Positions 5,655-64,000 of a DNA stretch of 64,000 nt are shown piece by piece; the first letter of the stretch is position 1; each line of letters starts with the position of its first letter. The position numbers were made by a program, and so were the translations under genes. The notes under the pieces are model-generated. The model was not told where the DNA came from. It worked only from the letters and a program-made list of their open reading frames with translations, and searched no databases. This DNA is from Clostridia bacterium (GTDB lineage Bacteria > Bacillota > Clostridia > Christensenellales > DTU072). Where the stretch lies: the NCBI GenBank assembly GCA_017403145.1, contig JAFQOO010000010.1:96151-160150 (forward strand), written 5' to 3'.

Positions 5655-5732
5655 AATTTTATTTTAACATATTCTATTGAAATTGTCATTATTTATGTTA
5701 AACTATTATATACAAATCACTAGGAGCTAGTT

Positions 5733-35170: not shown

Positions 35171-35905
35171 CTATTCTCCTATACTATAACTTGATTGGGG
35201 TACTACAAAGTCGCTCTCTCCGTTGGATATCGAACCGCTTTGAACACTTATGGTACCCGAACTGCTTGGTTTAGTTGCTTTAACATTCAATATTGTGTCT
35301 CCGTCGTTTATGCAGTCGTAACCGCTTTCCGAGTAAACTACCACTACCATAGAGCTAACGGAAACCGAGTATATTTCCATTTTAAAAGCGCTTGTTAACT
35401 TGAGGGTGGGCTCGCTTAGAACAATTCCGCCCGAGGTGGAAAGAGTAAATCTAAGAGCATATACTCCACCGCTAACCGTGCTTGCCTTATCTGCCTTTAT
35501 ATCGACGTCGTAACCGGTCTTACTTTCGTTTTCTACCACACCAATATTAAACCTAAATGAAGTTTCTACCGAAAGAGAGCTTTGTACCTTGTAAATATAG
35601 TTGGCACTCTTGCCTTTATAGGTAACGGAAAGCGTTCTACCCGTCGTAGTAGTCGAGGTATCAAAGCCACTAACCATACCCTCGGTAATACTTATGCTTG
35701 CAGTAGAGCCATCGGTATAGGTAACGAGTATTTTGGATGCGCTTAGGTTCAATTTTTCATCTAGCGCGTAAATTTCCTTGAACGAACCTTGTATTATTTG
35801 AATGGAAGATACCGCTTTTTCTTTGTTACAAGCAGTAAGCATACATACGAATACTAGGCAAAGGAGTATCACCGTTATTATCGTTCTAATATTTTTCTTA
35901 TTCAT
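35171..35905 (-). CDS. Lipoprotein with one Ig-like (Big_3-type) domain and a C-terminal cohesin-like domain
   Basis: Lipobox LLCLVFVCMLTAC. Ig-like domain KILVTYTDGSTASISITEGMVSGFD...TLSVTYKGKSANYIYKV. The C-terminal ~125 aa show a cohesin-like strand pattern. The start overlaps the upstream stop by 8 nt (ATGAATAA). Confidence 0.7.
   Translation of the reverse strand: MNKKNIRTIITVILLCLVFVCMLTACNKEKAVSSIQIIQGSFKEIYALDEKLNLSASKILVTYTDGSTASISITEGMVSGFDTSTTTTGRTLSVTYKGKSANYIYKVQSSLSVETSFRFNIGVVENESKTGYDVDIKADKASTVSGGVYALRFTLSTSGGIVLSEPTLKLTSAFKMEIYSVSVSSMVVVVYSESGYDCINDGDTILNVKATKPSSSGTISVQSGSISNGESDFVVPQSSYSIGE
35210..35593 (-). other. Cohesin-like module of the lipoprotein (inferred)
   Basis: FRFNIGVVENESKTGYDVDIKADKASTVSGGVYALRFTLSTSGG...SMVVVVYSESGYDCINDGDTILNVKATKPSSSGTISV. 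This parallels the type I cohesin pattern (V.I.V......G..V.VPV......GI....F.L.YD......IVFLF.D.....I..DGVFA.I.FKVK). By-eye comparison only. Confidence 0.4.
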
Positions 35906-48300: not shown

Positions 48301-51300
48301 TACTACGATTTGCTCTACGCTTCTGGGCTCTCTTGCTTCAACAGTGAAGGTTACGGGTAGTTCTTGGATATTATCACCCTCTCCTACTACTGCAGTCCAA
48401 GTATAGGTCCAATCCTTAGCGCTATATTCGTATGCGAGCTTGTCGTCTTTTTCTTCCCCTCTCCAATAGAAGTCTTTGCCCTCTACTAAGGTGGTGCGAT
48501 AGAATATGCTATTTACATCTATACCATATCCAACGTCGATGGTGGAAGGTAGATTGAAGGAGTTGATTTCTCCACTTGCAAGATACTTGGTAGCATCTAC
48601 GCTTTCGCCCATTCTATTTACTCTAATCTTATTCAAGGTACCTGCGTCTACATAGCTTTGTGCGTAGGAAGCAAATTCACTTTCGGAAACGCCTTCGTAA
48701 ACCACGTACAAGGTACCGTTTGCATTGGTGTAGGTCTTGATACCACTCTTACCACCATTGTATGCGGTTATGCCGGTACCGAACTTGTTAATCTTGTTGG
48801 CAGGCCATACGCTTACTATTTCTACAACGTTATCGTTTTCTAGTGCGTTAACGTCTACTCCGCTATAGTTAGCTTGAACGCTTGCGGGATAGAATGCAAG
48901 AACCATATTAGCGCCTTGTTCATAGGATAGTACGAATTGGGTTGCGTTTCTATCTTCGAAAGGTGCTATATCGCGGTCAGCGATGGTCGCGTCAAGGTTA
49001 TGTTCTACTATCTTCTTGGGTAGAATATTCAAGAATACTTCTATTCCTTGTTCGTGTCCTTGAGCATCCGTTACGTAGAAGATTACTTTGTAGAGAGGAT
49101 GTGAGGTTGCATTCAAATCAACGTCAGCGATAGAGCTTGCATCAACTCTTACAACCTTCCAATTTTCAATCTTGGTGGTGATGGGATTACCTTCGCCATC
49201 AAGAACGGGTTGGTTTTCTCTATCGGTTACGTTTGCAGTAATGCTAATCCACTTGATAGAACGAATATCGTTATAGATGTTTACTCCATCAATGGGATTT
49301 ACGGTAAGAACGTTGTTCTCTAGCTCTGCGGTGAAATCGCTTACAACGCCACTATAGTGATACAATACCTTTCCGTCTTCTAGATATGCGTAGGAGTTGG
49401 AGTTATTAACTACTACGTTATCAACGCCGAGGTTCAAGTAGAAGTCGCGGTATAGTTCGAAATCTTCACGAGTTACTCCACCGTATACCAAGTAGGTTAC
49501 GTCGGTTGCATCGTCATAGTATGCACGGAAGGAGGAGTTGCCACCCTTGAATTCGGTGTATGCGCCATAAATTTTGCTTAGTTCGTTAGCAATGGGGTCT
49601 GCGATTTCTGCGTACTTGGTAACGTTTGCACTATCGATACCTGCTAAGGTTTCTGCATCACGACCAAGAGCAATAACCATATTGCCACCCTTTTGGTATA
49701 CAAGGTTCATAGTCATTCTAGAAGTAATGCTATCTGCACTAACTGCTAGACAGTTCTTTACCTTGATAGGTACGTTGATGGTTACAGCTTCTGCATCCTT
49801 ACCTAGTGATACGTGGTCCTTATTATCATAGGTACGCGTATACTTATAGGTTAGTTTTGCATAGGCGGTAGAACCGTCGTACTTGACTACGGTATCACTC
49901 AAATCCCATTCAAGGTCGTTGAATACGTATCTCTTGAGTAGGTAATCGGTTTCTCCCGTTTGTCCGGGTAGAGTGAACTTTTGATATACGCCTTGTTGCA
50001 AGTAACGTATCTTTGCGGTGTAAACCAAAGTTTCGGGAAGTAGTTTCTTGTATTCTTCCTCGTTGTAGGTCAACGGGTCGATAGCCGGTAAATCAAGAAC
50101 GGGTTCTTGGTTATCTTCGTCGATTATCCAGCTGATTTGGTGATTATTTCTTCCACCTTGTTCTTCTAACTTCAAGGTAGAATCGGGGTCAACCATAATA
50201 CCGCCTTCAACTTCGGCCTTGATGTATTGAACAGCACCGTTCTTATCCTTCGAATAGGTTTCTTCTGCAATATAACCAATAATGTAGCCCTTGGTTCCTT
50301 CTAGGGTAGGTGCGAAGCTCAACATACTGAAATCCCAGTATACTTCTACACCTGCGGAATCGTCGGAGTTACCATCTTCGAAGTTTGCATAGTTACGTGT
50401 GGGTAGTATCTTCTTGATATCGGTTACGGCATAGGTTCCGTCGTTGTTAACGTTATGACGTGTACCACCCGTGCTTTGTGCCCAAGTACCACCATAAGCG
50501 GTAAAGTCAAGAATGTTATAGGGGTCGTGGAATACGATGGTATCGGGAGGTAACATTACCTTTTCGCTCATACCGGCGGTACCGCCTGCTTCGGAGTAGT
50601 AGAACTCGGAAGTAATGGAGGATACCGAGCGCATTCTTAAGCCCGTATTATTGATATCGATTTCTTGGAACCTATCGTCCTTTGCACTCATTACTTCGAT
50701 AGCGGTTGCAAAAGGTCCGGGGTTATTGTAGTTCAAGGTTCCGTCTGCCTTGATGGGATAACGACTTACGTAAGAGTAATTGTAGCTTTCAAGAGCATCG
50801 CTATATAGAGCGCCACCGGTTGCAAGACCTGCCCAGTTGAAGTTGCCCTTATAGTTGTTCTTGCTTACTGCCCAAGCAATATCACCATAAATAAAGTCGT
50901 GAGTATCAAAGTGTCCGTAAACGTCGCGAACGTAGGTCTTACCGATTAGTCTGCTGGTTACAGCACCGGTAACGGGGTCTGCAACGTACTCGTAGTCGCT
51001 AATGATAACGTAGCTGTTTACGATATTGGTTCTTATCCACTCTTGAATCATATCTTCGACTTCTTGGTAGTAATCGTCGACAGGTTCACCCTCTCTATTG
51101 TAAAGAATGGTATCGGCACGGAGTGCGGTTGCGCCGGGCATATATGCGTCGGCAGCGATTTCCATTTGGGGATTACCATCTGCGTCGTAGATGATATTGC
51201 CATCAGCATCGTGTGCATATTTCTTACCTACGGTACCGAGGGTTGCGTTAGAGTAGCTTGCACCGTTTAGGAACAAGGTAATTCTATCTAGCAAGGTATC

Positions 51301-54300
51301 AACTGCGTTGTTTAGAGTAATCTTTGCATAAACGCTCTTGTCGATAAAGTCAAGTTCACGAGAGTAACCGGTCATGATATTGCCATCATCGTCGAAGGTT
51401 GCGTTTATATTAACCTTACCATCGTCTTCACCGTCTATAACGGCACCGAGGTTGGAGTAATTGTAGTAGTTCTTGTAGTTGTATCCTACTAGATTATCGC
51501 CGGCATCAAGAATACCTGCATTCGAAATCAAGTCTTTAACGTCGGTTGCAAGGTGTCCGTGCTCTTTGATTAGTAGCGTTTGGATATCCGCGTCGAGAGC
51601 TACGCCCGAAATGGTAGAGGTAGGTCTAGACTCGTCTAGTTTAGGCTCGTAAACACCGGTTTGGTTGTCGTATTCACTATCCAAATAGGTGTATTCTGCA
51701 TCCGGGTCTGCCCACAAGGTTGATGCAACGGAGGTTTGCTTCAAGGGGCTACCATCTAGATTTTGCTCGTCTATCATACTGTAAGCATAGGTAAACGGTA
51801 GCAAGTGTGATAGCAAGCGTAGTGCTTGGTCGAAGATATCAATCAAGAAGTCGATTTGATATAGTACCATTTGAACGATGTTCATAATGGTGCCCGCATT
51901 ATCGCCAAGAGCTGAACCTAGAGCAAAGTTTAGTACGAATCCTAGTAACGAACCTACTAGTCTGCTACCTGCTGAGTACAAGGTATCTCTATAGTAGGAC
52001 TCGGTGTCGTATACGTAGTCGTACATCATTATGTCTTGTTCTTCGTTGAATTCACCAACGAATTGTAGCTTGTTAACCTTCTTATCATCGGTGCCTTCGG
52101 GTATAGCACATAGGTCAGCCATATTGTAACGTTGTTCCTTGGAAATGGGACTATATCCGCTATAACCAAGTAGCAAGTTGTGAACGATATCGAATACACC
52201 GTTTATCATGCTGGAAGAAATCCAAGCTTCTATATAGGTGATGGAGTCGGAGGTATCTTCCTTACCTTCTTCGTAACCTGCAACGTAGTTGGTCCACGGT
52301 ACGAATACGGGCTTGCCCATGGGGTCTAGATATTGAGAAGTGGTATCAACGCCGGATACGGAACCGAACAAGGAACCTAGTACGTTACCTGCAAGGGTGG
52401 AAACTATAGTACCACCGATACCGCCTATTGCGTTGCTGATAGCATTCTTGATAGCACTGGAAGCTTGTCCCTTTGCGGTATCAAGGAGTGCGTTAACAGC
52501 TTGGTCGCCTAGTTTGGTTAGGTAGGAGTATTGGGTTAGCGGTATACCGTCTTGAGTGTAACCTGCGTCGGAGGGGTCTTGTGCTTGGTCGACAACGTCT
52601 CTACTTGAAGCATCGGATAGGTCTGCACCTAGACGTAGACGTAAGCCTTCGATGGGTAATCCGCCTGCAGTAGCGTTGCTATTAGCAATCCACTCGGGTA
52701 TTTCTTTGGGCTCTAGGAAGATTTCACCATAGTTGTAGAAGTTCGATTGAGTAGTCAAGGTATGACGACCAACGTCGAAGTTGGTGTAATCGGTTGCTCT
52801 TATCTTCAAGTTGTACTCTCTGTTGAGGAGTAGGTTGGGGATAGAGAAGGTACCATCACTGTTCAATGCGTTAGCCTTATCGTTCAACTCGGTTTGGCTA
52901 CCGTTGATTTGTACGGAGCCGAGGAAGTTTCTTGCATTGTTTTGCCAATACAAGTCGCCTTGAGCCATTCCCGTACCATCCGCTTTCTTGAACGAACGAG
53001 TATTTTGATTACCACCGTTGTAGTCGTCGGACATTCTAATGGTTCTACCATCTAGCTCTAGCCATACTTCTACGCCACTGAGAACGGGAGTGGTAGAAGC
53101 CTTTGCTATAGCAAGGACTACTCTGTATGCAGTTTCGGTACCACCGTTTTCAGCAACGTATTTTTGAGTGGTGAAGCCACGAACTTCAACTATGCTCTTA
53201 ATATCGTAGCTGATTGCGTGATAGTACAAGGAAGGAATCTTTTCGGTGATTTCAAAGCCGGACTTGTTTGCTAGCTTTTCATCAACGAAGTTCTTTATTG
53301 CGTTGGTTACGTTATTCTTTGAGGGATAATCGTATACGCGATATTCAACGTAGTTTCTATCGAACGATGCGTATAGCTTGCCACCTGCAGCCTCAGCTAG
53401 CGGGTCGTCGAACGTTGTGTTAAAGTAAGAATTGATTTGGTTGGTTGCAGCATCGTCATAAGTGGGATTTTCGGTTGCATCCTTACCTAGCAAGGTGAAT
53501 ACTTCACTTGCGCTACCATCCATAATCCAATCGTTCTTCAAGGTTACGAGGATACCACTCAAGGTACCAACGGTCGGGTCGTGATAACCGGTGGTCTTGA
53601 AGTATACGTCATAAGGATTGCTTTCACTCTTCGAGTTAGGAGTACCATCTCCGTTAAGTTCCAATGCCAAATTGCTTTGTAGCATTTGTCCATTGGCCTT
53701 CTTTAGTTGAATTGCGTGGTTGAAGCCCTTGAGTGAAGGAACTACTACTTGTAGAACACCATCTGCTCCGGTGGTACCCAATTCGGTTGCAACGCCGTCT
53801 ATTAGGATATATACGGTTGCACCGACCATAGGACGAAGAGCGGTATTGTTTGCTTCGTACTCTTCTTCACCCCTTACTCTTAGGTGTACGTTTGTCCAAA
53901 CGGTTTCTCTATACTCGGAAAGAGTAAAGTTTGCTTCGGTTGCAGGATACTCGTTAGAACGTAGTACCGTTGCGTAAACGGGAGTCTCGCCTCTACGCGG
54001 TAAATCGTTATAACCCTTCTTGGTTATCTTTACGCTATATCTTGCAGGACGAATGTTAATGAATGCGTAGTTACCGTCTTTATCGGTGGTGGTTGTATAT
54101 CTTCCGCCATCTAGGTCTACCAAAGCATCGGCAACGGGTTCCCATTCTCCGGTACTATTATTATATGTGTTTACGTTACCATACAATGAACCAAAGTTTG
54201 TATCTTCCTCAACAGGCTTGAGCGAAGCTACTAACGTGGGCAAGAAGGTGGGTAGATACAAGTTTACTACGGGAATACCGCCTGCTCCACCGCCCAATAC

Positions 54301-57300
54301 GTCGTCAAGAATTTGACCAATACGTAGCGGTGAACCATATCCGGTAGCATCACCTATCATATCGGCTATCCAAGTAGAAACGTACGGACCTGCGAAGTCC
54401 CAAACTATTCCTACTACCTGTCCGGCAATTCCATTGATAGCTCCTGCTATGGTTTCTAGCAACCAGCCTGCAACTGTGTTGATTAGACCACTCAAGTCTA
54501 TTACCAAGATGTTAGCTAGACTTAGGTGTAGAACGTTGTTCTTCAAGAATGCGGTTAGACCTTGAGGCTCCCAATCTTCTTCGTTTGAAAGTGAACCTTG
54601 AACGTTTGCAACTTGGGTTAACTGTGCAATGGGGATTTCCGTCTTATTGGTCATAGTCTTGTTAAGAGCAAGCCTAATTCTTCTATATGCGTTATCGAAG
54701 AATATGGGTTCGTATGCCTTTAACAATCCACCAACGTCAATGCTAATACTGGTATTGGGAATGCTTAGTACCCAATCGAATGCACCACCCTTAGATACGA
54801 ATGCGTGGTCGTAAGAGGTTAGTCCACCGGTTGATTCGTTTGCACGGTTTCTAATTACGGGGCTGAAGTAGGTGGGACCGGTCGAATAGCTGGTTCCTAG
54901 AGCGGAAATTTCGAGGGTACCGTTTGCGCCACCATAACCGAGGTTACGTAGGAAGAAGTAGTCGTTACGTTTTTCGATATACAAGGTGAAATCGCTAAAC
55001 GAGATAACGTCTAGTAATCCTTGTGCAAGGCTCAATGCGTTAATGTTAGCGGCGAGGTTACCTGCGGAATCCATACCGAGGGACAAGCCTTCGATACCAC
55101 CGTATAGGCTTTCGTCGCCCACACTAATTTGTTTTTGATATTGTTCTGCAGTCGCACCAAGAGCAATAGCAAAGTTGCCTTCTTGTACACCTACGTTCAA
55201 GTAGTTGCCCTTTTGGTCTAGCTTGATACGCAAATTCAAGTTGTTTAGACCTTGATATAGGTTTATAGAAAGTCTAATGTCGCTCAATGCGGGCAATGCC
55301 ATACTATCGCCTAGTAGACTTTGAACGATTGCCATATTGGGATTGATGATGATTTCCTCGTTGGACATCAAAATCTTCAATAGCGGTGAATCGGTAGCGG
55401 TGATTAGGTCGATAGTAGCGTTTTGTGCCTTATCGGAAAGGCTTACTGCTTCGGTTTGTGCACTTGCGTTGGAAAGTGCGTTGTTTGCGTTTAGTGCTGC
55501 TCTTTCTTCATCCTCTACGGTGAGTATGCCGGCAAGCATTTCGTTTAAGTTGATGCCTTCTTCGCCGAGGAATCCACCGAGGAAGTTGTTGAGTATGCCA
55601 AGAACGTCAACACCGTTTAGTGCTGCTTGGAATAGGCCAAGACCACTCAAGTTGACGTAAACGGTATTAACTTGACCGATAAAGTATACGCCTATTAGCT
55701 CTTCGCCGGTTAGGTTAATAGTTAGAGCAAGAGCGGTGTTGGACATATCTGCTAGGTCAGCGTAAACGGTTAGACCAAGTGAGAATACCAATACGGTGTC
55801 TTGAACGTCAAAGTTGATGGTGTCGGCAGAAAGTCCCAACAAGTCTTGTAGTAGATTTTGTACTGCTATGAGTTGCGGAGGCTTTTCTTCGGAATCTTTG
55901 GTGCGTACGCGAGCTTCAAGTTCGAGGTTCAATGCAACCTTATTGATGATACCGATATCTTCGTAAACGATACCATCTTCACCCGTTCCTTCAACGAATT
56001 CACGAGCATCGATAGAAGAATCTCTTTCGGGTTTACCTTGTGCTTCAAGAACGCTATCTGCCCACATATCGAACGAGCCACCAATGTTTAGACCAATGCG
56101 GAATGCCTTCTCGTAAGGAGTATCGTCGGTAAGTCTCAAGCATAGACCGTATACACCGTCTTCCTCGGAGTAACCGATTTGCAAGTTTCTAAACATAGGT
56201 ATTAGAATTTGTGAACCACCAAGTACGCTGGATATAGCGGCATTCTTGAATGCGTTAGAAATTAGTGAATATGCCAATGCACCGGTGATTGCGAGAGAGG
56301 TTTCGTCTGCGCCGAAGGTTAGAAGAAGTAGTCTTTCGGTCCAACCATAATCTTTGAGGTATACTCTTTCGATTTCTTGCTTTTCAATAGCATCGCCTGA
56401 TGCACCTGCGTTGTCGTTAGCGTTTTCGCCTTCGTTTTGTGCACCTGCGTTTTGTACTTCAGCGCCTGCGTTTGCAACAGCATTGGAGCCTGCATCGGTG
56501 CTTTCGTCGCTAGCACCAAGTCCGCTGATGAGGTTACGTAGTACTGCACCAAGTTGAATTCCTTCAAGCTTCAAGCTGGGGAAGCCTAGACCGCTTAGGT
56601 CTACGTAAATGGTACTGCTTTCATAAATGCCATACTCGTCTACTGCGTATCCGCCTTGATAGGTGATAAGAGCCATAGTCTTATCGTTGTAGGTCATTTC
56701 GAGTTGTAGACGGAAGGGTTCGATGCTACCAAAGTCGATATATAATCTTAGTGCCAATTGTACCGAAATTGCTATATCGTCAATGGGTTGTAGAGCCATA
56801 TTGATTTGGCTAATCATTTCGCCTATTCCGGGTCCTAACAATCCGCCAACGGTACCAAGAAGCTCGCTCATATCGAATAGACCGCCAACGGTGTCGTCGA
56901 TTTTAAATTCGAGGGTAACTTCTGCTTCCATTTCGTACTCAGACAAGGGCTTGAAGTAGGTTGAGAAGTATTCTAGATAATCTTCTCTCATCATAGAACC
57001 GAGAGGAGTTTCGGCAAAGATGTTGGTTTGACCCAAACCGATATCGATACCGTGAATCTTAACACCAACGTTGTACATACTCTTGGTGCTGGATACAGCC
57101 ATAAGTACCTTATAATCTGCAACGTTACCAAAGCTATCCAATACTTCAGCGACCTTAACGGATACGTTAAGCATTGCTGCATAGTGGTGGAAGGTATGTA
57201 CACCTTGTGCGTTTTGACTCCATACGTACGTGCTCTTATGGAGAATATCGGATATGGATTCTATTACCTTTTCTGCATTAGCCTTTGCAAATTCAAGATA

Positions 57301-60300
57301 TCTTGTAGTGCCGGGTAGATATGCAGAATCGATAGCATAATAGTCGGAAGGATTATAGATGAAATAGAATACGTTACGTGTTCCGGAGTTCTCTAGCGGG
57401 AAGTCCTTATCTTCCGTGATAACTTGTTGTTGTAGATAGGTCTTTTCTGCAACGAGAGGTTTCTTTCCGTCGTCGGTTGCGATTTCTGCATTGACGAGGA
57501 AGCCGGATTCATAGGTTGAACGTATTTCTTCAAGAGCTGCTTTCTCGGAAACGATGCTTACTAGCTTATCGCCTAGCATAGAGCATTCGATACCTGCAAT
57601 ATTAAGAGGTATGCTGGTGTCGCCCAATACGTATGCTAGTAGAACGTTGTTTTCGGAAATCTTAATCGCTATCTTGGTTGTACTATCGGATAGAATATTG
57701 ATATCGTTTGCTATGTCGTTATTCGAGCTAAGGCCTGCGTTAACAAGAGCGTTTACGATAGCAGTTCTTACTGCGATTGCACGTTGTCTTAGCGCTTCGC
57801 TTCCGTAGGCGATATTCTTATCTAGTTCGTAAATATCATAGGTGTTATATACTAGATATCCTACCTCTTTATTGGTTCCTACGGGAATAACGTTATATGC
57901 CTCGCTGTTAAAGGAGGTGCCAATATAACCTTCGGATGCAAATACACTATAGGTTCCAATGTTATTATAGCTTGCGGTTATGCCGGTAAGTGCTATAGAG
58001 GGAGCGCCAAGTCCGTTCTTAACAGCGTCTACACTTTCTTGTGATGCAAGCGTAGTGTTAAGGTTTGCTATTTCGGTCTTGGTAACGTCGATAGGTTCTT
58101 GATAATCTAGACCAAGATTCAAAGATAGTGAGTTAGCGGTATTATCTAGGGTAACGGAGAGGTTACCTATCTTTTCGTCGAAGGGGAATCCAACGGTTTC
58201 TTTTAGCAAGGTTTGAATTGCGGTTTGAGCAACTACTATAGAAATAGCACCTTTAGTAAATTGGATACTATCAAGTAGTCCAATGAACCACATACCACTA
58301 TCTTCTTCTACTTCTTCTTCGTAATCGTAGATATTGTCTTCGTCGCTTGCTTCTTCGCCGGCGTTTTGTACGCCACTTTCTACTCCTCCATTGGAGTTAC
58401 CGTCGTTTTCATCCTTCATCTTGTCTTCGTCGCCGAGCATATCGTACAGTTGGTCAATCAAGTCGTCAAGGGTGTTAACGATACCGCCTGCGGTGTTGGA
58501 CAACGTTCCGCCGAGGCTATCCAGAACTGCGTTAAGGTTCAATGATAGGAACTCTTCGAATACTTGGTGATTTAGTTCAATACCGGTAATGCCATAGTTT
58601 TGGAAGGCACCCATAGTTAGGTATAGACCAAGTCTGCTTTCTTCGTAAGATTGTGCATCTCTATGCATTGAGCCTAGAACGTACAATGCAAAGTATTCTT
58701 CTTCAACGTCGCTTTCGCCTTCAGCATAGGTGCCGGGCTCTTTTAGTTTTACAAGTTGAACTATTGCATCGATACCCCACTTGTCAAGGTCTTTTAGTGC
58801 AACGTCTGCCTTGATACGCAAGGTTGCGTCGCCCATAATATCGTTAAGAGCTTGAATGTAGAATGCTGCACCGATTACGTTACCATCAACGTCTTCTTCG
58901 TTTTGGAATAGAGAGCTCCAGTTGAGGATATATTCACGAATATCGGCGGATACCGAAATATCGATACCGAGGTTCAATCTCCATTCGAGGTTACCGGTGG
59001 AGAAACATCCTTCCTTGAATTCTCTCATTTCCTCGTCGTTGCGCATAAAGTCGAGATATTCGTTGAAGGAATCGGTGTTGATAAGTGCAACCGAGTCGTG
59101 TAGCAAGCTTAGAGTTGCAGCATAACCTGCACTCATATACTTGTTACCATCGGGAGTTTCGATTTCCGCACTATCCTTAGTGATGTTAATTTGTAGACTT
59201 ACGCCACCCGTTCCTTCTTCGAAGAATAGACCAACCGATGCGTAGTCGAGTAGTAGATTTGCTATACCTTCGATGTGCTCGGTGGTAACTTCAACGTCGC
59301 TATCTGCGGCGCCGAGTAGTCCGGTCAAAATTTCGATTAGAGCATCGCCAACGCCAATGATTAATTCTTTAGTAACCATCAAGCCAAAGCCTTCACTATT
59401 CAAGTAAATGATAGGCTTTAGGAAGTTGCCGATAGCATAATCGCTTTCTTGGTACATATCTATAATAGGATTACGCGCGGGACCATCGGGAGCGGTTGAG
59501 GGGGCGTTTTGAACGTCGGAGCCACCGCCAACACCTTGGTCAACGTCGGCCATATCGAATATATCGCTCATTATATCACGTACGAAAGCGGTAATATCGA
59601 ATTCGTCAAGCTTAATATCAAGGTTGGTGTCGAATATTTCAAGACCGAGATATGCAACGTTATCAACCATATAAACTTGTAGTAGTTTTTGAGTGTCGTA
59701 AATTTCACCGGTAGTGTTATCGATAATTGTATAACGTACTACGAGGTCAACTATTAGTGCCGAACCGAATACTTCTGGGTCGGTAGAAAGCATTCTCTTG
59801 AGGTCTAGACCTGCTTTGAGGTTGATTTCCATAAACAAGGTCTCGTCGCCACCTGCAAGAACTATAGAGGTATCTAGGTCTTCGGGAAGCTTGATGTTGA
59901 GCATACTAAATACCACTTCGAGTAGGTCAACGAGTGAAACGTCGCCGTCTTCAAAGTCAAGTTGAAGACTCAAGTTGGTACCAATTTGGAATGCCATTTC
60001 GTCGTACTTGGTGTAAGAGCTTCTTTCTTCTGCGCTTATAACGGGTACGAGAGTAGACTCCTTACCGTAAGGAGTATAAATTTCGGTTTCGTTTTGGATA
60101 TCAGCCTTGATATTTTGTCCTAGTATGGAAATACCAAAGTTGATACCTGCGCCTGCGTTATAGTCTTGAGCATCGGTAACGATAACCCTATCACCATTTT
60201 CGTCAACAACGTACTCGCCGTTTTCATCATATAGATAGCTACCTAAAATGTGGTTACCATTTTCATCGTATACGTAGTTGCCATCTTTGTCTACAAGGTA

Positions 60301-63300
60301 TCTACCTATTACGTATTCGCCCGTTGCGGGGTCGATTACCCAATGGTCGCGGTAGTCTTTACCGGTATCTAGGTGAATACCTACTTGATATTCACTTTGA
60401 GGAGTCATACCGATATCAACGCTGGGCTCAAGAACGCCTGCCAAGTAATCTTGTAGGTCGATATCTAGACCAACGAGCATTAGTAGAACGTTAATCATTT
60501 CGAAGGTTACGGTTAAGAGTAGTCCATCGTCTTGTGAGAGGAGTATCTTAACGATACCGATTAGTTGTTCTTCTGCTTCTTCACCATTGAGTGCAAGCAT
60601 TTGTCCCCAAGTGGGATAGGTCTCGGCAAATAGTGCTTCTACTTCGGGAGTAATAGCAACGTTTTGAGCTTCGCCTTCGCCACCTTCCCCTTCTTCGGTA
60701 TTTCCACCATTCATAATGTACTCAAACATACCCATTAGTTCCCAAATTTCAATCTTGCCTAAGCCGATTGTAGAAAGGTCAAGGTATAGGTCGCCATCAA
60801 ACAGAGCAATGGAGATATAGAATCTTTCTTTATCCTTCAAGGAGTATATTTCTACCTTGAGTTGTAGCTTGTTGAGTAGTCCGTCTAGACCGCCCTTAAT
60901 GAATGCTTTTGCAAGAATATCAATTCTAATGGTATCGCCAAAGGAATCTTCATCACCCTTCAAGAAGCCAAGCATTATGAGGTTGGGTAGTGCGGTTGCA
61001 AGAGGACTATCCTTACTAAATAGAGTTTCAAATGCGGTATCCTTAGCCATTCCGCCAAGAGGTCCGTTGATATCCAAAATGGTATCGTATAGGTTGCCGA
61101 GGTCTACAACACCATCGTTAATCTTGAACTTGATTTCAAAGCCTGCTTCTAGTTCGATGGTATTAACGTCGTGTGCGGGTAGATAGTTAGCGGTTTGCGG
61201 GAGGATAAGTTTATCAGAGGGATATGCTTCAAAGTTCAAGTCGTGGTCGCCTAGTGCTATACCGAGGTCAAGAACCTTGGAAGTTTCCATCGTGGTTTCG
61301 CTAGTGCTGGTAGCGGAAAGTTCTAAATCGATACCAAGGTTAAAGCTGTTCTTCTTGGGGGCAAGGGAAATTTGTAGTAATACGTCGCTAAATACCTTTA
61401 ATGAAGGTAGCGGTACTATGCCAAGAACACTATTTACTGCGGTTTCGGTTAGATATAATGCTAGACCATAAGTAGCAATGCCTCTAATGAGCATAGGTGC
61501 ACCGAGGTCGATATTGATGGGAGTATAAGCGCCACCGTTTGCGTTTTGTGCGCCGGCGTTTTGTACTTCACCTTCGGTACCTTCTTCCTTGTCTTCGTTA
61601 GAGCCCGTGCCAAAGCCGAGGTCGATATCTTTTTCACCTAGCAAGCTTTCGAGAACTTCTTCAACACTAAACTTAGGTCCGTTCAAATAGGTCAAGTCAA
61701 CGTACAAGTTGGAGTTGTGGAGGTTTACTTGAACAAGTTTATAATCGTGGTTACCATCAACGCGTCTTACGGTTAATTGAACCTCGATACCTCTATAGTT
61801 GAGTAGAGGTAGGTTTACTAGAATTTCTACAACCAAGCTGATTTGATGTTCACCAACAACCTCTAGAAGAATACCTAGAGTGTTATCGAGCATACCTGCA
61901 AGAAGGCTTGCAAGTAGCGATGTTAAAGGTTCTTTGTTAAGGTCGTAACCGGAGTATACTTCGTCGGTCAAGATACCTAGTAGACCTTCGCCGGTAATAG
62001 CTTCGGAGCCGAGGTCAAAGTAAAGGTTTAGACCAAAGCTTACTACAGGGTCGGTATGGTCGAAGTCAACGTAATCTTGTTTTACGTAATCGTAAAGAAC
62101 GTTGCCTTCGTCGTCGAGGGTTTCGCCATCAACGTATGCATATTGAGGAGCTACCATCGTGTGGTCAACGAAAACAGACTCTACTCTAATAGAACCATCC
62201 TTTTCCTTATAATAGGTATCTTCTATCCAACCAAAGCTCAATGCCATTGTAAATTCGTTGGATATACCAAACGACAAGCCAATCTTTCCACCCTTTTCGT
62301 AATCGTGTACGTTGGGGTCGGTGGAAAGGTCAACTCTTTCGTCGCCTGCAAACTTGTATCCTTGGAAGGTTAAACCGAACTCTAATACGTGGTCGGGACC
62401 GGCTATACCAAGTTCTATTTCAAGTTCACCGATGGGTTCAACGTAGCTAGAGAAGTCCATAGCCTCGCCACCAATTGCACGTAGTATGCCAAATAGTGCG
62501 GCGGAGGTGATGCTGATAATCAAGCCTTGAGGACTAATTAGAGCGTTGATATATCCTACGATAGGAGTTGCGCCTTCGGGTAGGTTGAATAGTACGAAGG
62601 GGTCAAAGTTAGATTGATAGCCTGCAAAGCCGTGATTCTTGACCTCTTCTTCTTCCTTACCATAGTTGGGGTCTTTACCGCCTTCAACGTGTTCTACGCC
62701 GAATGAAGGTAGTATATCTTGGGTTAGGAAGTTCCAAGCATCTTCTATCTTAACTGCTTGTAGATTGAAGCATTCTGCATTCAAATAAGCACAGCTATCG
62801 ATATGATAGAAGGAAAGAACTTCTTTGAACTTTTCTTCACCATCGTAGTTAACGGTTTCATTTCTATCGCGTAAAATTACAGCAAAGTTCGTCTTGTAGA
62901 AAGTCATATTGTAAATGATTTCGCCCAAGTTGATATTGCCTATAATTTCAAGTCTATAGTGAGTGGTTACGTTGGAAAGAAGTTGAATGATGGGAGCAAG
63001 ACCAAGTCCGCCGATAGTATCCATAATACCGCCTGAACCAAGTAATCCAAGAGCCCCTGCTACGGTTTCGTCAAGGTTGAATTTAGCGGTATCGTCGCCA
63101 TCAATATCAAAATCAATATATAATTCAACGTAAATGGAGTCAACGTCAACTGCTCCTGCGTAGTTGTTCTTATCAAAGCCTTCGGGTGCGATATTTACGT
63201 CGCCCATTTCGTCGGAAGCATCTCTAAAGTCAACGTCTAGACCCATTATTGCAAAGCCTACGGTGTAGTTTGCAAGCTCTAGAGTTAATCCTAGTAGTGC

Positions 63301-64000
63301 GTTTTCGTCGTCTTCTGCAACGATGCCTTCGTCGGTTTCTTTAGTCCAGAAATCGTTCATAAAGGCTAGGTTTGCAATTAAACCTAGTTGCAATGCAAAG
63401 TTATCGTTTACGATATCGGCAACTAGTCCGCCCAAATCGTCAACGCCTTCTATACCTAAATCAAGACCGCCGAGAACTGCGAACAATACTGCGCCCATTA
63501 TGTCGATAATGAAGCCGGTTCCGTTACCAAATACCATTCTTACGTAGGGAAGTAGTGCTTCGCTATCTACTTCTTCGTTCATAGCGTACTTGGCTAGATA
63601 TTCTTCGTCGCTCATCTTACCGCTTGCACGAAGCTCGCTGATACTTGCATTGTTTACTACTTCTTCGTCGCCTTCGTAAATTTCGTCGTCGTCTTCGTTT
63701 TCTTTATCATAGTAGTCGTCCAAATCGTCGCCACCAATCAATCCGAAGATAACGTCCATAAACTTGTCTATCTTTAGTCTTTGGATACCAAGTATACGAC
63801 CATCGATATATGCGGTACCGTCTTTATAATATATTGATATGTAGTCGACTACTTTTTCGGTATATTTTACGGTATAACCCTTTAGTTCACTTTGTTCAAC
63901 GTCGATAAATTCTCTTTCAACTTCTAGACCTATGCGGAGTAGGAACTCTATTCTAACGAGTAGCCAATTGATATCGTTAGTTGCAAGGAAGAGCATAATA
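42373..64000 (-). CDS. Giant (at least 7,207 aa) multidomain protein, probably 5'-truncated by the window: diverged long-module array, Gly-zipper hydrophobic segments, CarboxypepD_reg-like domains and an Ig-like (Big_4-type) array
   Basis: Uninterrupted frame of 21.6 kb. The codon upstream of the first ATG (63999-63997) is sense. There is no signal peptide at the apparent N-terminus. Domain motifs are listed in the findings. Confidence 0.9.
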   Translation of the reverse strand, partial: IMLFLATNDINWLLVRIEFLLRIGLEVEREFIDVEQSELKGYTVKYTEKVVDYISIYYKDGTAYIDGRILGIQRLKIDKFMDVIFGLIGGDDLDDYYDKENEDDDEIYEGDEEVVNNASISELRASGKMSDEEYLAKYAMNEEVDSEALLPYVRMVFGNGTGFIIDIMGAVLFAVLGGLDLGIEGVDDLGGLVADIVNDNFALQLGLIANLAFMNDFWTKETDEGIVAEDDENALLGLTLELANYTVGFAIMGLDVDFRDASDEMGDVNIAPEGFDKNNYAGAVDVDSIYVELYIDFDIDGDDTAKFNLDETVAGALGLLGSGGIMDTIGGLGLAPIIQLLSNVTTHYRLEIIGNINLGEIIYNMTFYKTNFAVILRDRNETVNYDGEEKFKEVLSFYHIDSCAYLNAECFNLQAVKIEDAWNFLTQDILPSFGVEHVEGGKDPNYGKEEEEVKNHGFAGYQSNFDPFVLFNLPEGATPIVGYINALISPQGLIISITSAALFGILRAIGGEAMDFSSYVEPIGELEIELGIAGPDHVLEFGLTFQGYKFAGDERVDLSTDPNVHDYEKGGKIGLSFGISNEFTMALSFGWIEDTYYKEKDGSIRVESVFVDHTMVAPQYAYVDGETLDDEGNVLYDYVKQDYVDFDHTDPVVSFGLNLYFDLGSEAITGEGLLGILTDEVYSGYDLNKEPLTSLLASLLAGMLDNTLGILLEVVGEHQISLVVEILVNLPLLNYRGIEVQLTVRRVDGNHDYKLVQVNLHNSNLYVDLTYLNGPKFSVEEVLESLLGEKDIDLGFGTGSNEDKEEGTEGEVQNAGAQNANGGAYTPINIDLGAPMLIRGIATYGLALYLTETAVNSVLGIVPLPSLKVFSDVLLQISLAPKKNSFNLGIDLELSATSTSETTMETSKVLDLGIALGDHDLNFEAYPSDKLILPQTANYLPAHDVNTIELEAGFEIKFKINDGVVDLGNLYDTILDINGPLGGMAKDTAFETLFSKDSPLATALPNLIMLGFLKGDEDSFGDTIRIDILAKAFIKGGLDGLLNKLQLKVEIYSLKDKERFYISIALFDGDLYLDLSTIGLGKIEIWELMGMFEYIMNGGNTEEGEGGEGEAQNVAITPEVEALFAETYPTWGQMLALNGEEAEEQLIGIVKILLSQDDGLLLTVTFEMINVLLMLVGLDIDLQDYLAGVLEPSVDIGMTPQSEYQVGIHLDTGKDYRDHWVIDPATGEYVIGRYLVDKDGNYVYDENGNHILGSYLYDENGEYVVDENGDRVIVTDAQDYNAGAGINFGISILGQNIKADIQNETEIYTPYGKESTLVPVISAEERSSYTKYDEMAFQIGTNLSLQLDFEDGDVSLVDLLEVVFSMLNIKLPEDLDTSIVLAGGDETLFMEINLKAGLDLKRMLSTDPEVFGSALIVDLVVRYTIIDNTTGEIYDTQKLLQVYMVDNVAYLGLEIFDTNLDIKLDEFDITAFVRDIMSDIFDMADVDQGVGGGSDVQNAPSTAPDGPARNPIIDMYQESDYAIGNFLKPIIYLNSEGFGLMVTKELIIGVGDALIEILTGLLGAADSDVEVTTEHIEGIANLLLDYASVGLFFEEGTGGVSLQINITKDSAEIETPDGNKYMSAGYAATLSLLHDSVALINTDSFNEYLDFMRNDEEMREFKEGCFSTGNLEWRLNLGIDISVSADIREYILNWSSLFQNEEDVDGNVIGAAFYIQALNDIMGDATLRIKADVALKDLDKWGIDAIVQLVKLKEPGTYAEGESDVEEEYFALYVLGSMHRDAQSYEESRLGLYLTMGAFQNYGITGIELNHQVFEEFLSLNLNAVLDSLGGTLSNTAGGIVNTLDDLIDQLYDMLGDEDKMKDENDGNSNGGVESGVQNAGEEASDEDNIYDYEEEVEEDSGMWFIGLLDSIQFTKGAISIVVAQTAIQTLLKETVGFPFDEKIGNLSVTLDNTANSLSLNLGLDYQEPIDVTKTEIANLNTTLASQESVDAVKNGLGAPSIALTGITASYNNIGTYSVFASEGYIGTSFNSEAYNVIPVGTNKEVGYLVYNTYDIYELDKNIAYGSEALRQRAIAVRTAIVNALVNAGLSSNNDIANDINILSDSTTKIAIKISENNVLLAYVLGDTSIPLNIAGIECSMLGDKLVSIVSEKAALEEIRSTYESGFLVNAEIATDDGKKPLVAEKTYLQQQVITEDKDFPLENSGTRNVFYFIYNPSDYYAIDSAYLPGTTRYLEFAKANAEKVIESISDILHKSTYVWSQNAQGVHTFHHYAAMLNVSVKVAEVLDSFGNVADYKVLMAVSSTKSMYNVGVKIHGIDIGLGQTNIFAETPLGSMMREDYLEYFSTYFKPLSEYEMEAEVTLEFKIDDTVGGLFDMSELLGTVGGLLGPGIGEMISQINMALQPIDDIAISVQLALRLYIDFGSIEPFRLQLEMTYNDKTMALITYQGGYAVDEYGIYESSTIYVDLSGLGFPSLKLEGIQLGAVLRNLISGLGASDESTDAGSNAVANAGAEVQNAGAQNEGENANDNAGASGDAIEKQEIERVYLKDYGWTERLLLLTFGADETSLAITGALAYSLISNAFKNAAISSVLGGSQILIPMFRNLQIGYSEEDGVYGLCLRLTDDTPYEKAFRIGLNIGGSFDMWADSVLEAQGKPERDSSIDAREFVEGTGEDGIVYEDIGIINKVALNLELEARVRTKDSEEKPPQLIAVQNLLQDLLGLSADTINFDVQDTVLVFSLGLTVYADLADMSNTALALTINLTGEELIGVYFIGQVNTVYVNLSGLGLFQAALNGVDVLGILNNFLGGFLGEEGINLNEMLAGILTVEDEERAALNANNALSNASAQTEAVSLSDKAQNATIDLITATDSPLLKILMSNEEIIINPNMAIVQSLLGDSMALPALSDIRLSINLYQGLNNLNLRIKLDQKGNYLNVGVQEGNFAIALGATAEQYQKQISVGDESLYGGIEGLSLGMDSAGNLAANINALSLAQGLLDVISFSDFTLYIEKRNDYFFLRNLGYGGANGTLEISALGTSYSTGPTYFSPVIRNRANESTGGLTSYDHAFVSKGGAFDWVLSIPNTSISIDVGGLLKAYEPIFFDNAYRRIRLALNKTMTNKTEIPIAQLTQVANVQGSLSNEEDWEPQGLTAFLKNNVLHLSLANILVIDLSGLINTVAGWLLETIAGAINGIAGQVVGIVWDFAGPYVSTWIADMIGDATGYGSPLRIGQILDDVLGGGAGGIPVVNLYLPTFLPTLVASLKPVEEDTNFGSLYGNVNTYNNSTGEWEPVADALVDLDGGRYTTTTDKDGNYAFINIRPARYSVKITKKGYNDLPRRGETPVYATVLRSNEYPATEANFTLSEYRETVWTNVHLRVRGEEEYEANNTALRPMVGATVYILIDGVATELGTTGADGVLQVVVPSLKGFNHAIQLKKANGQMLQSNLALELNGDGTPNSKSESNPYDVYFKTTGYHDPTVGTLSGILVTLKNDWIMDGSASEVFTLLGKDATENPTYDDAATNQINSYFNTTFDDPLAEAAGGKLYASFDRNYVEYRVYDYPSKNNVTNAIKNFVDEKLANKSGFEITEKIPSLYYHAISYDIKSIVEVRGFTTQKYVAENGGTETAYRVVLAIAKASTTPVLSGVEVWLELDGRTIRMSDDYNGGNQNTRSFKKADGTGMAQGDLYWQNNARNFLGSVQINGSQTELNDKANALNSDGTFSIPNLLLNREYNLKIRATDYTNFDVGRHTLTTQSNFYNYGEIFLEPKEIPEWIANSNATAGGLPIEGLRLRLGADLSDASSRDVVDQAQDPSDAGYTQDGIPLTQYSYLTKLGDQAVNALLDTAKGQASSAIKNAISNAIGGIGGTIVSTLAGNVLGSLFGSVSGVDTTSQYLDPMGKPVFVPWTNYVAGYEEGKEDTSDSITYIEAWISSSMINGVFDIVHNLLLGYSGYSPISKEQRYNMADLCAIPEGTDDKKVNKLQFVGEFNEEQDIMMYDYVYDTESYYRDTLYSAGSRLVGSLLGFVLNFALGSALGDNAGTIMNIVQMVLYQIDFLIDIFDQALRLLSHLLPFTYAYSMIDEQNLDGSPLKQTSVASTLWADPDAEYTYLDSEYDNQTGVYEPKLDESRPTSTISGVALDADIQTLLIKEHGHLATDVKDLISNAGILDAGDNLVGYNYKNYYNYSNLGAVIDGEDDGKVNINATFDDDGNIMTGYSRELDFIDKSVYAKITLNNAVDTLLDRITLFLNGASYSNATLGTVGKKYAHDADGNIIYDADGNPQMEIAADAYMPGATALRADTILYNREGEPVDDYYQEVEDMIQEWIRTNIVNSYVIISDYEYVADPVTGAVTSRLIGKTYVRDVYGHFDTHDFIYGDIAWAVSKNNYKGNFNWAGLATGGALYSDALESYNYSYVSRYPIKADGTLNYNNPGPFATAIEVMSAKDDRFQEIDINNTGLRMRSVSSITSEFYYSEAGGTAGMSEKVMLPPDTIVFHDPYNILDFTAYGGTWAQSTGGTRHNVNNDGTYAVTDIKKILPTRNYANFEDGNSDDSAGVEVYWDFSMLSFAPTLEGTKGYIIGYIAEETYSKDKNGAVQYIKAEVEGGIMVDPDSTLKLEEQGGRNNHQISWIIDEDNQEPVLDLPAIDPLTYNEEEYKKLLPETLVYTAKIRYLQQGVYQKFTLPGQTGETDYLLKRYVFNDLEWDLSDTVVKYDGSTAYAKLTYKYTRTYDNKDHVSLGKDAEAVTINVPIKVKNCLAVSADSITSRMTMNLVYQKGGNMVIALGRDAETLAGIDSANVTKYAEIADPIANELSKIYGAYTEFKGGNSSFRAYYDDATDVTYLVYGGVTREDFELYRDFYLNLGVDNVVVNNSNSYAYLEDGKVLYHYSGVVSDFTAELENNVLTVNPIDGVNIYNDIRSIKWISITANVTDRENQPVLDGEGNPITTKIENWKVVRVDASSIADVDLNATSHPLYKVIFYVTDAQGHEQGIEVFLNILPKKIVEHNLDATIADRDIAPFEDRNATQFVLSYEQGANMVLAFYPASVQANYSGVDVNALENDNVVEIVSVWPANKINKFGTGITAYNGGKSGIKTYTNANGTLYVVYEGVSESEFASYAQSYVDAGTLNKIRVNRMGESVDATKYLASGEINSFNLPSTIDVGYGIDVNSIFYRTTLVEGKDFYWRGEEKDDKLAYEYSAKDWTYTWTAVVGEGDNIQELPVTFTVEAREPRSVEQIVVYPYSSYYITGTNTEVYDNASVLENEQAVNYKTASGTAKIETEVYFDILNSDLANKVKGDKIVINGKEYLTNVTFVDPSFEGAWYFVDVLLHDDVFGYVTIKHVRVVLSKSTISGLNIPVQEVYLYDADNGINALLAQPGITASIYQIANNTIGTNAFEIVGWNYVDADGFKPAYTFVGEDVPQINVEIANVGWKQGKKVWSQQVTVTLTQDMLPAKEITGIATKFGEGYTISNNGDLVLTLDDPFKFELPTELEVSFKDGKTGMVPVTFDFGDKKFDFYSATEGIEGTITLGDKVNNQVTYKMIYVNDNPRNDIEVTYYVDANATEEFNDFTYDALEAFELPKYAKINVGGIPEDNVYDVTWKYIEAYGLEGGKIEAHAWIGDEVFGYIKRYEELTINAESIHNYTLPNSVSINPYAVKGIENELDKLLGLTDGCLNVTTTLGNEKALDVQYPYIPLDYRVTTTHNVDLAVGVTLDFGGVEQIVTLTEEGEIETIMDSNILEVRQNVPVMVVVESRVAVGIKTWYTDETTNITGSVYEPIDFSALGKATIVAIGQGKESTDKLIGDANSLAQLLASTGAVELESNLWPSEVFSWNSATELAKANGQIAKVYHDATRDTYYIAYRGNVDVDALLARFELSALFNKATNNSYLVAGDDVLVEVKSFDEGVTVLFSTGEEEKYDLTFDDSSVIYSFPGGTFNVKATLGSGETEQIFQFKVYLHSSYITEVGVTTAGVNKDSVVRTNESGVITELVVDPYIGFVGLPDKIMAYFDNMSSPVELDVEWNYRAILAEMTSAGGRYDASNNKSAIAIVSVKKDDGSLIVQNVEVPVTVLNRTRKSVFVSKYATTEEYEQAKLAGVVGDEFEQLQTRLTLNPYTERYSEDFNSKDFYYYKRVLIVVNSVSGEDTSANMYDKTGKELIFNLSADSYEIVDIATNRATDLKNLYTGRKVEANFSYGSTSLTAASDTRWSTSIVLTIMDMTYESGLVNSYEIDTYGIDANKATEIAPFAGISDENQMTVTHQGKFMSVSGQEFESDIVYDRTDALTIFDTYGKEAGKIGVQGGTARIYATIGNELGGYQTITIPVNYANRQIVSLFDVDEVPYAFDTTPEGAPATVHFEIDPFESYEGRNDIYPQSGSKVLFADGTIGSFSTKGNGVLVEWDDSKVIRTYSGSNTGYVTATISYNGTFEQILRYKVIVEDRTVTGFTNVLKDKDAMIQPYLYSYVDDVSASVVADYFRTKEAFVVEFGNMSNRDCWKNKTITFTIGALASANSASVEQGSKFVITESEMNLKMGFILDGARGLGHKGKDARFYITIPGFGLGAKGQQLARFDVPVAESYVHGVRFFNENKAGAEGNEDNPDYYDLDYYEWLQQVDPDAFGTDDGDAIVRFETQYGSYYLDSYYVDNPYYFISKGGIPVPTQALVYVGPKMDDAQAQYETIDNATYAFLSDTSWDNVVNNRTRIKYNELDHTTAFQLDLDGQVYNFKFHLSDEWTLDTQKEEDVLFLEGYAYGKEEVILMPGNETVRDANILSVSTEGNIEIVAGTGIYRNDVYTITFTSGEDARTFSFTGVAGGGSFRDNYMKWNFDMVNWNAPSTVMQYATMTLGGKGGQTVKWGFYVNSAKALVNNTVPTMYAMQMEETITLDSTYKQLFSGSTLNQARKIPLHYSTGMSSYYSVGGSANDTYPLGVKRVEGEEYKVVAEKHTPSYHYSFNDGGDQKVSDGSGYVSYITWDATKYRAYPKPNKSVGGKIVFAVYRDPIIQDATPVRDAGGGSGPYDNLKDFGAYIYHPDAMFGYSEIRPLVPDTWTYPMNMSALGAVTVTGDSSVTMPKNATSYKVTYNNNRFQQTAVPVISVAINSTFDLRNLPTIAVTESRPTVEYNPGGFMGVFESQTMAGFEYDLMYLIPWQNAKVYYTNSKEDPNKWNPLNGTYGSLVNGGFGAITTERSRQNGRYTLVTEMAFSDSNKLTLFCSIDIV

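Follow-up and report, generated by a model that had tools for sequence, protein, structure and literature searches.

Giant repetitive surface proteins, or fibrillar adhesins, are a known kind of molecule in Gram-positive bacteria, the Ebh-type proteins being one example. The Giant1-5 proteins of Apilactobacillus kunkeei are another (PMC12863079). Here we consider a stretch of 64,000 nucleotides from a Clostridia bacterium (contig JAFQOO010000010.1, positions 96,151 to 160,150; the whole stretch is called the window below), in which one open reading frame (ORF) of 7,207 amino acids (aa), at 42373..63996 on the minus strand, carries a tandem array of long, diverged modules joined by acidic linkers. 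We propose, with a probability of about 0.6, that this array serves a giant, membrane-anchored surface lipoprotein as a segmented stalk, and that the linkers are flexible hinges within it. Like Giant1-5 and the Ebh-type adhesins, the protein has thousands of residues, a secretion signal, a tandem-domain array as would-be stalk and different domains at its far end, and its gene is clustered with those of other large surface proteins; as in a repeat stalk, the tandem homologous array makes up most of the length, with 8 units in the window, ~14 in the full protein and 10-17 in homologues. What is new here is the domain, an alpha/beta module of ~290 aa, unlike Ig-like, helical or beta-solenoid units; the position of the stalk next to an N-terminal lipobox instead of an LPXTG or other C-terminal anchor, so that the array would be membrane-proximal; and a clade-specific, conserved Asn motif in the linkers.

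Two other kinds of protein invite comparison. Cellulosomal scaffoldins are also large surface proteins with tandem modules and low-complexity linkers, and a dockerin is present in the product of a gene next to ours; however, no cohesin was matched in the giant protein (Pfam) or in the window, and the linkers here are rich in acidic residues, Gly and Asn whereas those of scaffoldins are rich in Pro and Thr. The AsmA-like, or repeating-beta-groove (RBG), proteins are marked by a helix that anchors the N-terminus, by a Chorein-N domain and by a continuous hydrophobic groove, made of repeated units of five strands plus a loop, that bridges two membranes (PMC10345924). With members such as TamB and YhdP the protein described here shares its great length, long amphipathic antiparallel strands, disordered loops and N-terminal anchoring in the cytoplasmic membrane (PMC10345924), and this likeness, to which the preliminary description of the locus had drawn attention, is weighed further below.

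The array and its modules

The giant ORF holds all the strand motifs, linkers and junction strings that had been reported for this locus, and the three-part boundary which these form was found eight times, each part where it had been placed. The ORF is open at the window edge; the codon ahead of its first ATG is not a stop, so that the true start of the gene lies beyond the window. Its closest homologue, P0001 (82% identity), comes from a metagenome-assembled genome (MAG) titled 'Clostridia bacterium' and aligns with the window protein from P0001 residue 2,344 on, leaving 2,343 aa more upstream, from which we estimate a full length of ~9,550 aa. The N-terminus of P0001, MKRNLTHKILLLILAVALIAALFAC|SPR (MKRN...LFAC|S), is that of a lipoprotein signal peptide with lipobox. 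By this alignment, the window ORF is predicted to be the C-terminal three quarters of a ~9,550-aa lipoprotein, the lipobox of the window's own protein, whose N-terminus lies outside the window, being read from homologues. Six module C-ends upstream, in P0001, and eight in the window give ~14 in the full protein. The window's share of the array consists of the tail of module 0 and seven complete modules, and is followed by ~4,300 aa of non-module sequence; the expectation of at least eight modules was thus right for module C-ends, of which there are eight, but the modules themselves amount to seven plus the tail of an eighth.

The boundary elements recur far more frequently than composition would predict. 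Compared with residue shuffles, [VA]QNA was observed 6 times against 0.14 expected, a count reached by none of 2,000 shuffles, a looser junction pattern 13 times against 2.3, and the strand regular expression 6 times against 0.77. Successive strand motifs are 341, 361, 306, 379, 345, 669 and 316 aa apart, and the junction Asn lies 26-69 aa downstream of each. Searched with a profile built from the eight module C-ends, aa 1-2,800 yields exactly those 8 copies and the C-terminal 4,400 aa yields none; the profile also recovers, upstream in P0001, 6 copies that were absent from its seed. A second profile, which spans more of the module, settles at 52 copies drawn from 6 proteins and matches none of 30 shuffled proteins. 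Module against module, plain BLAST gives weak matches, which are nevertheless in register; when profiles of orthologues are compared with hhalign, U5 and M3 align with a probability of 96.5% (E 9e-10, residues 18-279 versus 18-292) and U3 and U4 with a probability of 86%. Judged from these profile comparisons the internal repeat is significant and the modules are homologous over almost their entire length, so that the earlier impression of interiors barely alignable to each other holds for plain BLAST but fails once profiles of orthologues are used, with which they align nearly end to end. The segment that follows the array, aa 2862-3250, was considered as a ninth module and rejected, with hhalign probabilities of ~1.7% or less and no profile match.

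Across family alignments a module usually measures 270-370 aa (~300 aa). It opens, in agreement with the hydrophobic strand/helix start first noticed by eye, with a conserved strand-helix segment, GL.L.vTK..i..LL, and closes with a hairpin, 'xLYLDLSxLGxxKIxI', and a short helix. In the window, all on the minus strand, the array begins with the C-terminal tail of module 0 (63739..63996, aa 1-86; strand motif TAYIDGRILGIQRLKI at 63769-63816) and linker J0 (63643..63738, aa 87-118; net charge -14), which ends in EEVVNNAS. Module 1 (62704..63642, aa 119-431; strand motif CAYLNAECFNLQAVKI at 62746-62793) leads into J1 (62620..62703, aa 432-459; charge -4), where the Asn of EEEVKNHGFAG is kept in all aligned orthologues, and module 2 (61633..62619, aa 460-788; NLYVDLTYLNGPKFSV at 61663-61710) into J2 (61531..61632, aa 789-822; charge -6), with EGEVQNAGAQNANGG and a 16-nucleotide string, GTACAAAACGCCGGCG, at 61551-61566. 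Module 3 (60712..61530, aa 823-1095; DLYLDLSTIGLGKIEI at 60745-60792), the copy modelled below, is joined by J3 (60655..60711, aa 1096-1114; charge -5; EGEAQNVA) to module 4 (59557..60654, aa 1115-1480; VAYLGLEIFDTNLDIKL at 59608-59658), and the latter by J4 (59497..59556, aa 1481-1500; charge -4; GSDVQNAPS) to module 5 (58438..59496, aa 1501-1853; LGLYLTMGAFQNYGITGIEL at 58573-58632). Module 5 is the most diverged copy, with the weakest match to the C-end profile, and is missed by the longer one. Beyond J5 (58282..58437, aa 1854-1905; charge -17; ESGVQNAGEE), in which the second copy of the 16-mer lies at 58356-58371, module 6 (56524..58281, aa 1906-2491; TIYVDLSGLGFPSLKL at 56566-56613) reaches 586 aa, double the usual length, with an insertion of ~300 aa (aa ~1,960-2,300) that has no match to the module profile. 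After J6 (56377..56523, aa 2492-2540; charge -8), which carries tandem copies of the junction motif, NAVANAGAEVQNAGAQNEGENANDNAG, the array ends with module 7 (55519..56376, aa 2541-2826; TVYVNLSGLGLFQAAL at 55618-55665) and J7 (55414..55518, aa 2827-2861; charge -4; NALSNASAQTE...KAQNAT), with non-module sequence beyond.

This different, distal region (42373..55413, minus strand, aa 2862-7207) matches in Pfam CarboxypepD_reg, near aa 3286-3331, and, weakly, Big_4, and these alone; a search for PDB sequence relatives gave none. We presume that it would be the binding part of the protein. A ~100-aa element recurs within it when inspected by eye, at ORF aa ~4,900-5,900 (about 46300-49300), as in AYYDDATDVTYLVYGGVTREDFELYRDFY and KVYHDATRDTYYIAYRGNVDVDALLARFE, and an element of similar appearance is inserted within one module of the homologue P0004 (aa ~2,330-2,700).

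The module itself had no match in Pfam, NCBIfam or among PDB sequences at permissive thresholds, whether the region, 41 single modules or the module profile served as query (in Pfam, aa 1-3000 gave 0 families at E<=0.1, and the 41 individual modules were searched at E<=1), and P0001-P0005 carry no precomputed Pfam domain. Two AlphaFold2 models were made of module 3 alone, with the junction linkers outside the modelled segment. An alignment of 41 sequences gave a pLDDT of 65.8, and one of 56 sequences gave 73.3 (pTM 0.60); values of 80-96 are reached over the last 160 residues, and residues 1-17 beside the junction and a disordered internal loop (99-112) are of low confidence. The model is mixed alpha/beta, with 9-11 strands, many of them 10-15 residues long, and several short helices in its second half, ~18% helix overall, and a final helix closes it together with the conserved LYLDLS hairpin. 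Foldseek searches with the module 3 models, twice against PDB and once against BFVD, gave no match at E<=0.001; in PDB all E-values were at least 0.08 and TM-scores 0.28 or lower, the best of these non-significant matches being JlpA (E 0.42, TM 0.26), BamA, LmcA, porins, Mdm12 and ApoB100. JlpA of Campylobacter (PDB 3uau) and LmcA of Mycobacterium (PDB 7n3v), at the top of the matches, are also lipoproteins, open half-barrels with curved antiparallel sheets, but their matches are non-significant (E 0.09-0.4, TM 0.15-0.26) and they are single-domain proteins, not arrays. We treat the module, as modelled, as a putative new domain family of mixed alpha/beta structure with long amphipathic strands.

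A first homology search returned five relatives only (P0001-P0005), and a word-indexed search with the module profile added 5 short fragments. Searching 1.84 billion representative proteins by HMMER with the module profile, we obtained 129 representative sequences at E<=0.001, 50 of them at E<=1e-30. About 30 members measure 5,000-7,900 aa and match the profile in 10-17 stretches each; in the members whose modules were tabulated, all of these fall within the N-terminal 4,000-5,600 aa. Thirty-eight members exceed 3,000 aa; 30 of them open with a lipobox signal, and the remainder appear to be N-terminally truncated. In public databases these proteins are named 'hypothetical protein' or 'carboxypeptidase-like regulatory domain-containing protein', and a literature search on the giant protein found nothing. 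Close relatives of module 2 (80-84% identity) are encoded in MAGs of Candidatus Stercoripulliclostridium, and remoter ones mostly in MAGs of uncultured Clostridia, Eubacteriales and Christensenellaceae, several of which are labelled as from animal gut. On the contig of P0004 (L002 907-21796) the giant gene is broken into two neighbouring ORFs of 3,629 aa and >4,850 aa, probably by a frameshift or an assembly error, so that database lengths of family members are partly underestimated.

Linkers and the junction motif

The eight linkers of the window are low-complexity segments of 19-52 aa, rich in Asp/Glu, Gly and Asn and also in Ala. All are net negative (-4 to -17), which bears out their first description as acidic/Gly linkers, and they diverge faster than the modules, their identity to P0001 being 74.6% against 85.5%. 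Of the functions that had been considered for the junctions, that of hinges fits these properties best.

The junction motif was examined in 444 junction windows across the family, with composition-preserving shuffles of the same windows as control. N-A occurs in 49% of junction windows, 36% of shuffled junctions and 24.5% of module interiors (z 5.9), and [QSA]NA in 20.5%, 9% and 2.6%, respectively (z 9.1). This enrichment is confined to the clade of the window protein (together with P0002-P0012, P0014, P0022 and P0028), in which N-A is found at 40-100% of junctions, mostly at least 60%; in the other clade (P0015, P0017-P0035) its frequency is at chance or lower. Family-wide, the motif is present at only about half of the junctions. 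At the boundaries of the window protein the loose junction pattern is present at 8 of 8 and the strict 'NA' at 7 of 8. In the first clade the logo reads [P/A/V] at -2, Q at -1 (5.6-fold enriched), N, [A/S] and then [P/E/G], with Pro enriched at both -2 and +2 of the junction Asn. A linker peptide such as GEVQNAGAQNANGG may serve as an example, and tandem arrangements (AQNA-GAQNA, PSNAGPSNAG) are common. At the junction ahead of module 3, x-N-[A/S/G/K] is kept in 11 of 11 orthologues down to ~30% identity while the neighbouring residues vary. From these patterns, [P/A/V]-Q-N-[A/S]-[P/E/G] is, as far as alignments can tell, a clade-specific short linear motif held at the same junction across orthologues, and most plausibly it would be a recognition site for a partner enzyme.

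The preliminary description had also pointed out that two junctions share an identical DNA string, and had suggested selection or gene conversion acting on the junction itself. The string is real: the 16-mer occurs exactly twice, on the minus strand at 58356 and 61551. As evidence for gene conversion it is weak, since with the codon bias of this gene any pair of V-Q-N-A-G sites has about a 5% chance of agreeing in all five codons, and we set the proposal aside as mostly a matter of codon bias. At three of six Q-N-A sites (58356-58371, 59497-59523 and 61551-61566, minus strand) the Ala is encoded by GCC, which accounts for 7% of the gene's Ala codons; this hints, weakly, at common descent or conversion.

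Flanking genes and the reading of the array

The gene downstream of the giant one (35898..42230, minus strand) encodes a 2,110-aa protein with a beta-propeller of RCC1 repeats, Big_2/Big_3 domains, a type I dockerin and, at aa 172-458, an InhA-like M6 metalloprotease domain (TIGR03296, E 2e-33), which confirms the protease previously noticed there. Further downstream in the window follow genes for a small Big_3 protein, a GH20 hexosaminidase and a P-type ATPase, in an order common to the window and the loci of P0006 and P0007 and not found at those of P0008, P0009 and P0012; the M6 neighbour is syntenic in the two nearest loci whose downstream side can be seen. Of the six motif-clade loci in which the downstream side is visible, three (window, L001 and L003) have the M6 gene next to the giant gene. 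Beside P0008, P0009 and P0012, all of them motif-bearing, it is absent, and for this reason we rejected the idea that an M6 protease always accompanies the motif. Upstream, homologous loci (L032 3085-9178; also L001, L003, L026 and L027) hold a cassette for a transglutaminase-like lipoprotein, a ~280-aa DUF4380-like protein (absent from L003), a ROK protein and PIG-L (absent from L026). The transglutaminase-like lipoprotein (3085-6159 in L032) is ~1,000 aa long, with a Big_2 match and a Cys-His-Asp triad that looks plausible when the translation is read by eye. It is encoded upstream in 5 of 5 motif-clade loci in which that side is visible, versus none of four loci in the other clade, but this contrast spans two clades only, so that the co-occurrence of motif and transglutaminase counts as approximately one evolutionary event. 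In the other clade PIG-L, together with GH20, lies upstream of the giant gene in three of four loci, and Mem_trans lies downstream in all four. The company of PIG-L and GH20, with ROK, beside the giant gene suggests a link to glycans that contain GlcNAc.

How, then, might the array work? In the stalk model, an N-terminal lipidated Cys, of the signal seen in homologues, would anchor the giant protein in the cytoplasmic membrane, the ~14 homologous modules would form a long, segmented, negatively charged stalk carrying the distal region through and beyond the cell wall, the acidic linkers would act as flexible, mutually repelling hinges between modules, and the Q-N-A element within them might be the recognition site for a partner. 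We infer both this stalk and hinge function and the location at a monoderm surface; the host is taken to be monoderm, with no outer membrane expected, from its taxonomy, from SpoIIE encoded in the window and from the Clostridia titles of the MAGs. Several points weigh against the proposal. The members of the family all come from uncultured MAGs, are annotated as hypothetical and are known from sequence alone; searches of Pfam and of PDB sequences did not identify a known adhesive domain at the distal end; the structural model covers a single module, at moderate confidence, so that any arrangement of one module relative to the next is conjecture; the strongly amphipathic strands could make a ligand- or lipid-binding surface instead of a passive stalk; and the conserved GH20, PIG-L and ROK neighbours hint at a role in amino-sugar glycans that lies outside the stalk model.

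If those strands line a lipid path, the modules would form a continuous hydrophobic groove of the RBG/AsmA type or a chain of half-barrel lipid pockets. The strands are indeed long and strictly amphipathic (for example IELEAGFEIKFKI), the model has runs of long antiparallel strands parted by a disordered loop, and its top, non-significant Foldseek matches include open beta-sheet lipoproteins or lipid binders (JlpA, LmcA, Mdm12, ApoB100). Yet AsmA, AsmA_2, TamB (DUF490) and Chorein_N gave no sequence match, in Pfam with aa 1-3000 and the 41 modules or in NCBIfam, and the Foldseek PDB matches listed hold no groove protein and stay at the E-values and TM-scores given above. The two halves of the module, which in an RBG-like duplication should be related, have no detectable homology (hhalign probability 0.4%), and the ~18% helix of the modelled module could cover the sheet. 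Most full-length homologues start with a lipobox signal in place of the transmembrane anchor helix and Chorein-N domain; the protein has discrete modules and acidic linkers in place of one continuous groove, in an array about three times longer than TamB; and a Clostridia host would have no second membrane to bridge. On present evidence the likeness to AsmA/RBG proteins is real but superficial, a lipid conduit seems to us very improbable, and to read the protein as an AsmA/VPS13-like lipid bridge, tempting as it is, would probably be a misreading.

The remaining alternatives concern the motif. That it has no function of its own, low-complexity sequence having been propagated through linkers rich in Ala, Asn, Gly and Glu by slippage and gene conversion, is an explanation we regard as doubtful but worth keeping in mind: the tandem copies, the repeated 16-mer, the rare Ala codon and the absence of the motif from a clade whose proteins share the architecture would all be expected from it, but retention at the same junction down to ~30% identity despite changing flanks, enrichment specific to positions -2, -1 and +2, and z = 9 against shuffles that preserve composition would not. 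A motif that sits in an exposed linker at every boundary of the window protein, and is kept at the same junction in orthologues, might also be a processing site, as had been speculated for the locus, a polyprotein being cut after Q-N, or elsewhere in the linker, into separate modules of ~35 kDa by the M6 protease or by the papain-fold, transglutaminase-like lipoprotein. The M6 gene lies just behind the giant one in the window, L001 and L003, and the transglutaminase-like gene ahead of it in all motif-clade loci with a visible upstream side, but the patchy occurrence of the first, the single event behind the second and the absence of the motif from about half of the family's junctions make such processing quite unlikely. 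Modification is unlikely as well, though it would be compatible with the stalk model, as the Gln or Asn of the motif, through Gln-Lys cross-linking or deamidation by the transglutaminase-like lipoprotein or through Asn-linked glycosylation, would tie the giant proteins together or to the wall. The enrichment of Gln at -1, with Pro on either side and frequent tandem copies, speaks for it, as do the co-occurrence of the transglutaminase-core lipoprotein with the motif-bearing clade and, in both clades, the GlcNAc-related PIG-L, GH20 and ROK genes flanking the locus; Gln at -1 is variable, however, S, A and L being found there too, no glycosyltransferase was seen in the loci, and the correlation comes from two clades only. 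A glycosylation sequon at the junctions was rejected, with N-x-S/T at only 3 of the window's junction Asn sites. The more specific proposal, that [P/A/V]-Q-N-A-[P/E/G] is the substrate site of the upstream transglutaminase-like lipoprotein, the Gln being cross-linked to other giants or to the wall, or the chain cut there, is a long shot; were it true, the ~14 junctions of each molecule would be the points at which a mesh on the surface of uncultured gut Clostridia is covalently held together. The conserved junction motif and the co-encoded surface enzymes together make a hypothesis that is open to biochemistry.

Whichever role the motif has, the segmented stalk remains our preferred reading of the array, and the family merits attention for its scale. 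It is an unnamed family of ~130 sequence clusters, with members of 5,000 to about 9,500 aa that rank among the largest lipoproteins of bacteria, built on a domain without relative in Pfam, NCBIfam or PDB, and its located members are mostly in uncultured animal-gut Clostridia. Giants of this size account for ~1% of a small genome and are probably dominant at the cell surface, and for that reason they are likely to bear on the attachment of gut bacteria to particles, glycans and other cells.

Other genes of the window

Elsewhere in the window, three ORFs of 371-559 aa on the minus strand (829-2184, 18226-19341 and 29259-30938) have no Pfam family at the thresholds used. Between the second and the third of these, at 19456-26292 on the minus strand, a 2,278-aa ORF combines an AddB N-terminal domain, a PD-(D/E)XK nuclease, a UvrD-helicase and UvrD_C, and its predicted product looks like AddB and AddA fused in one polypeptide.

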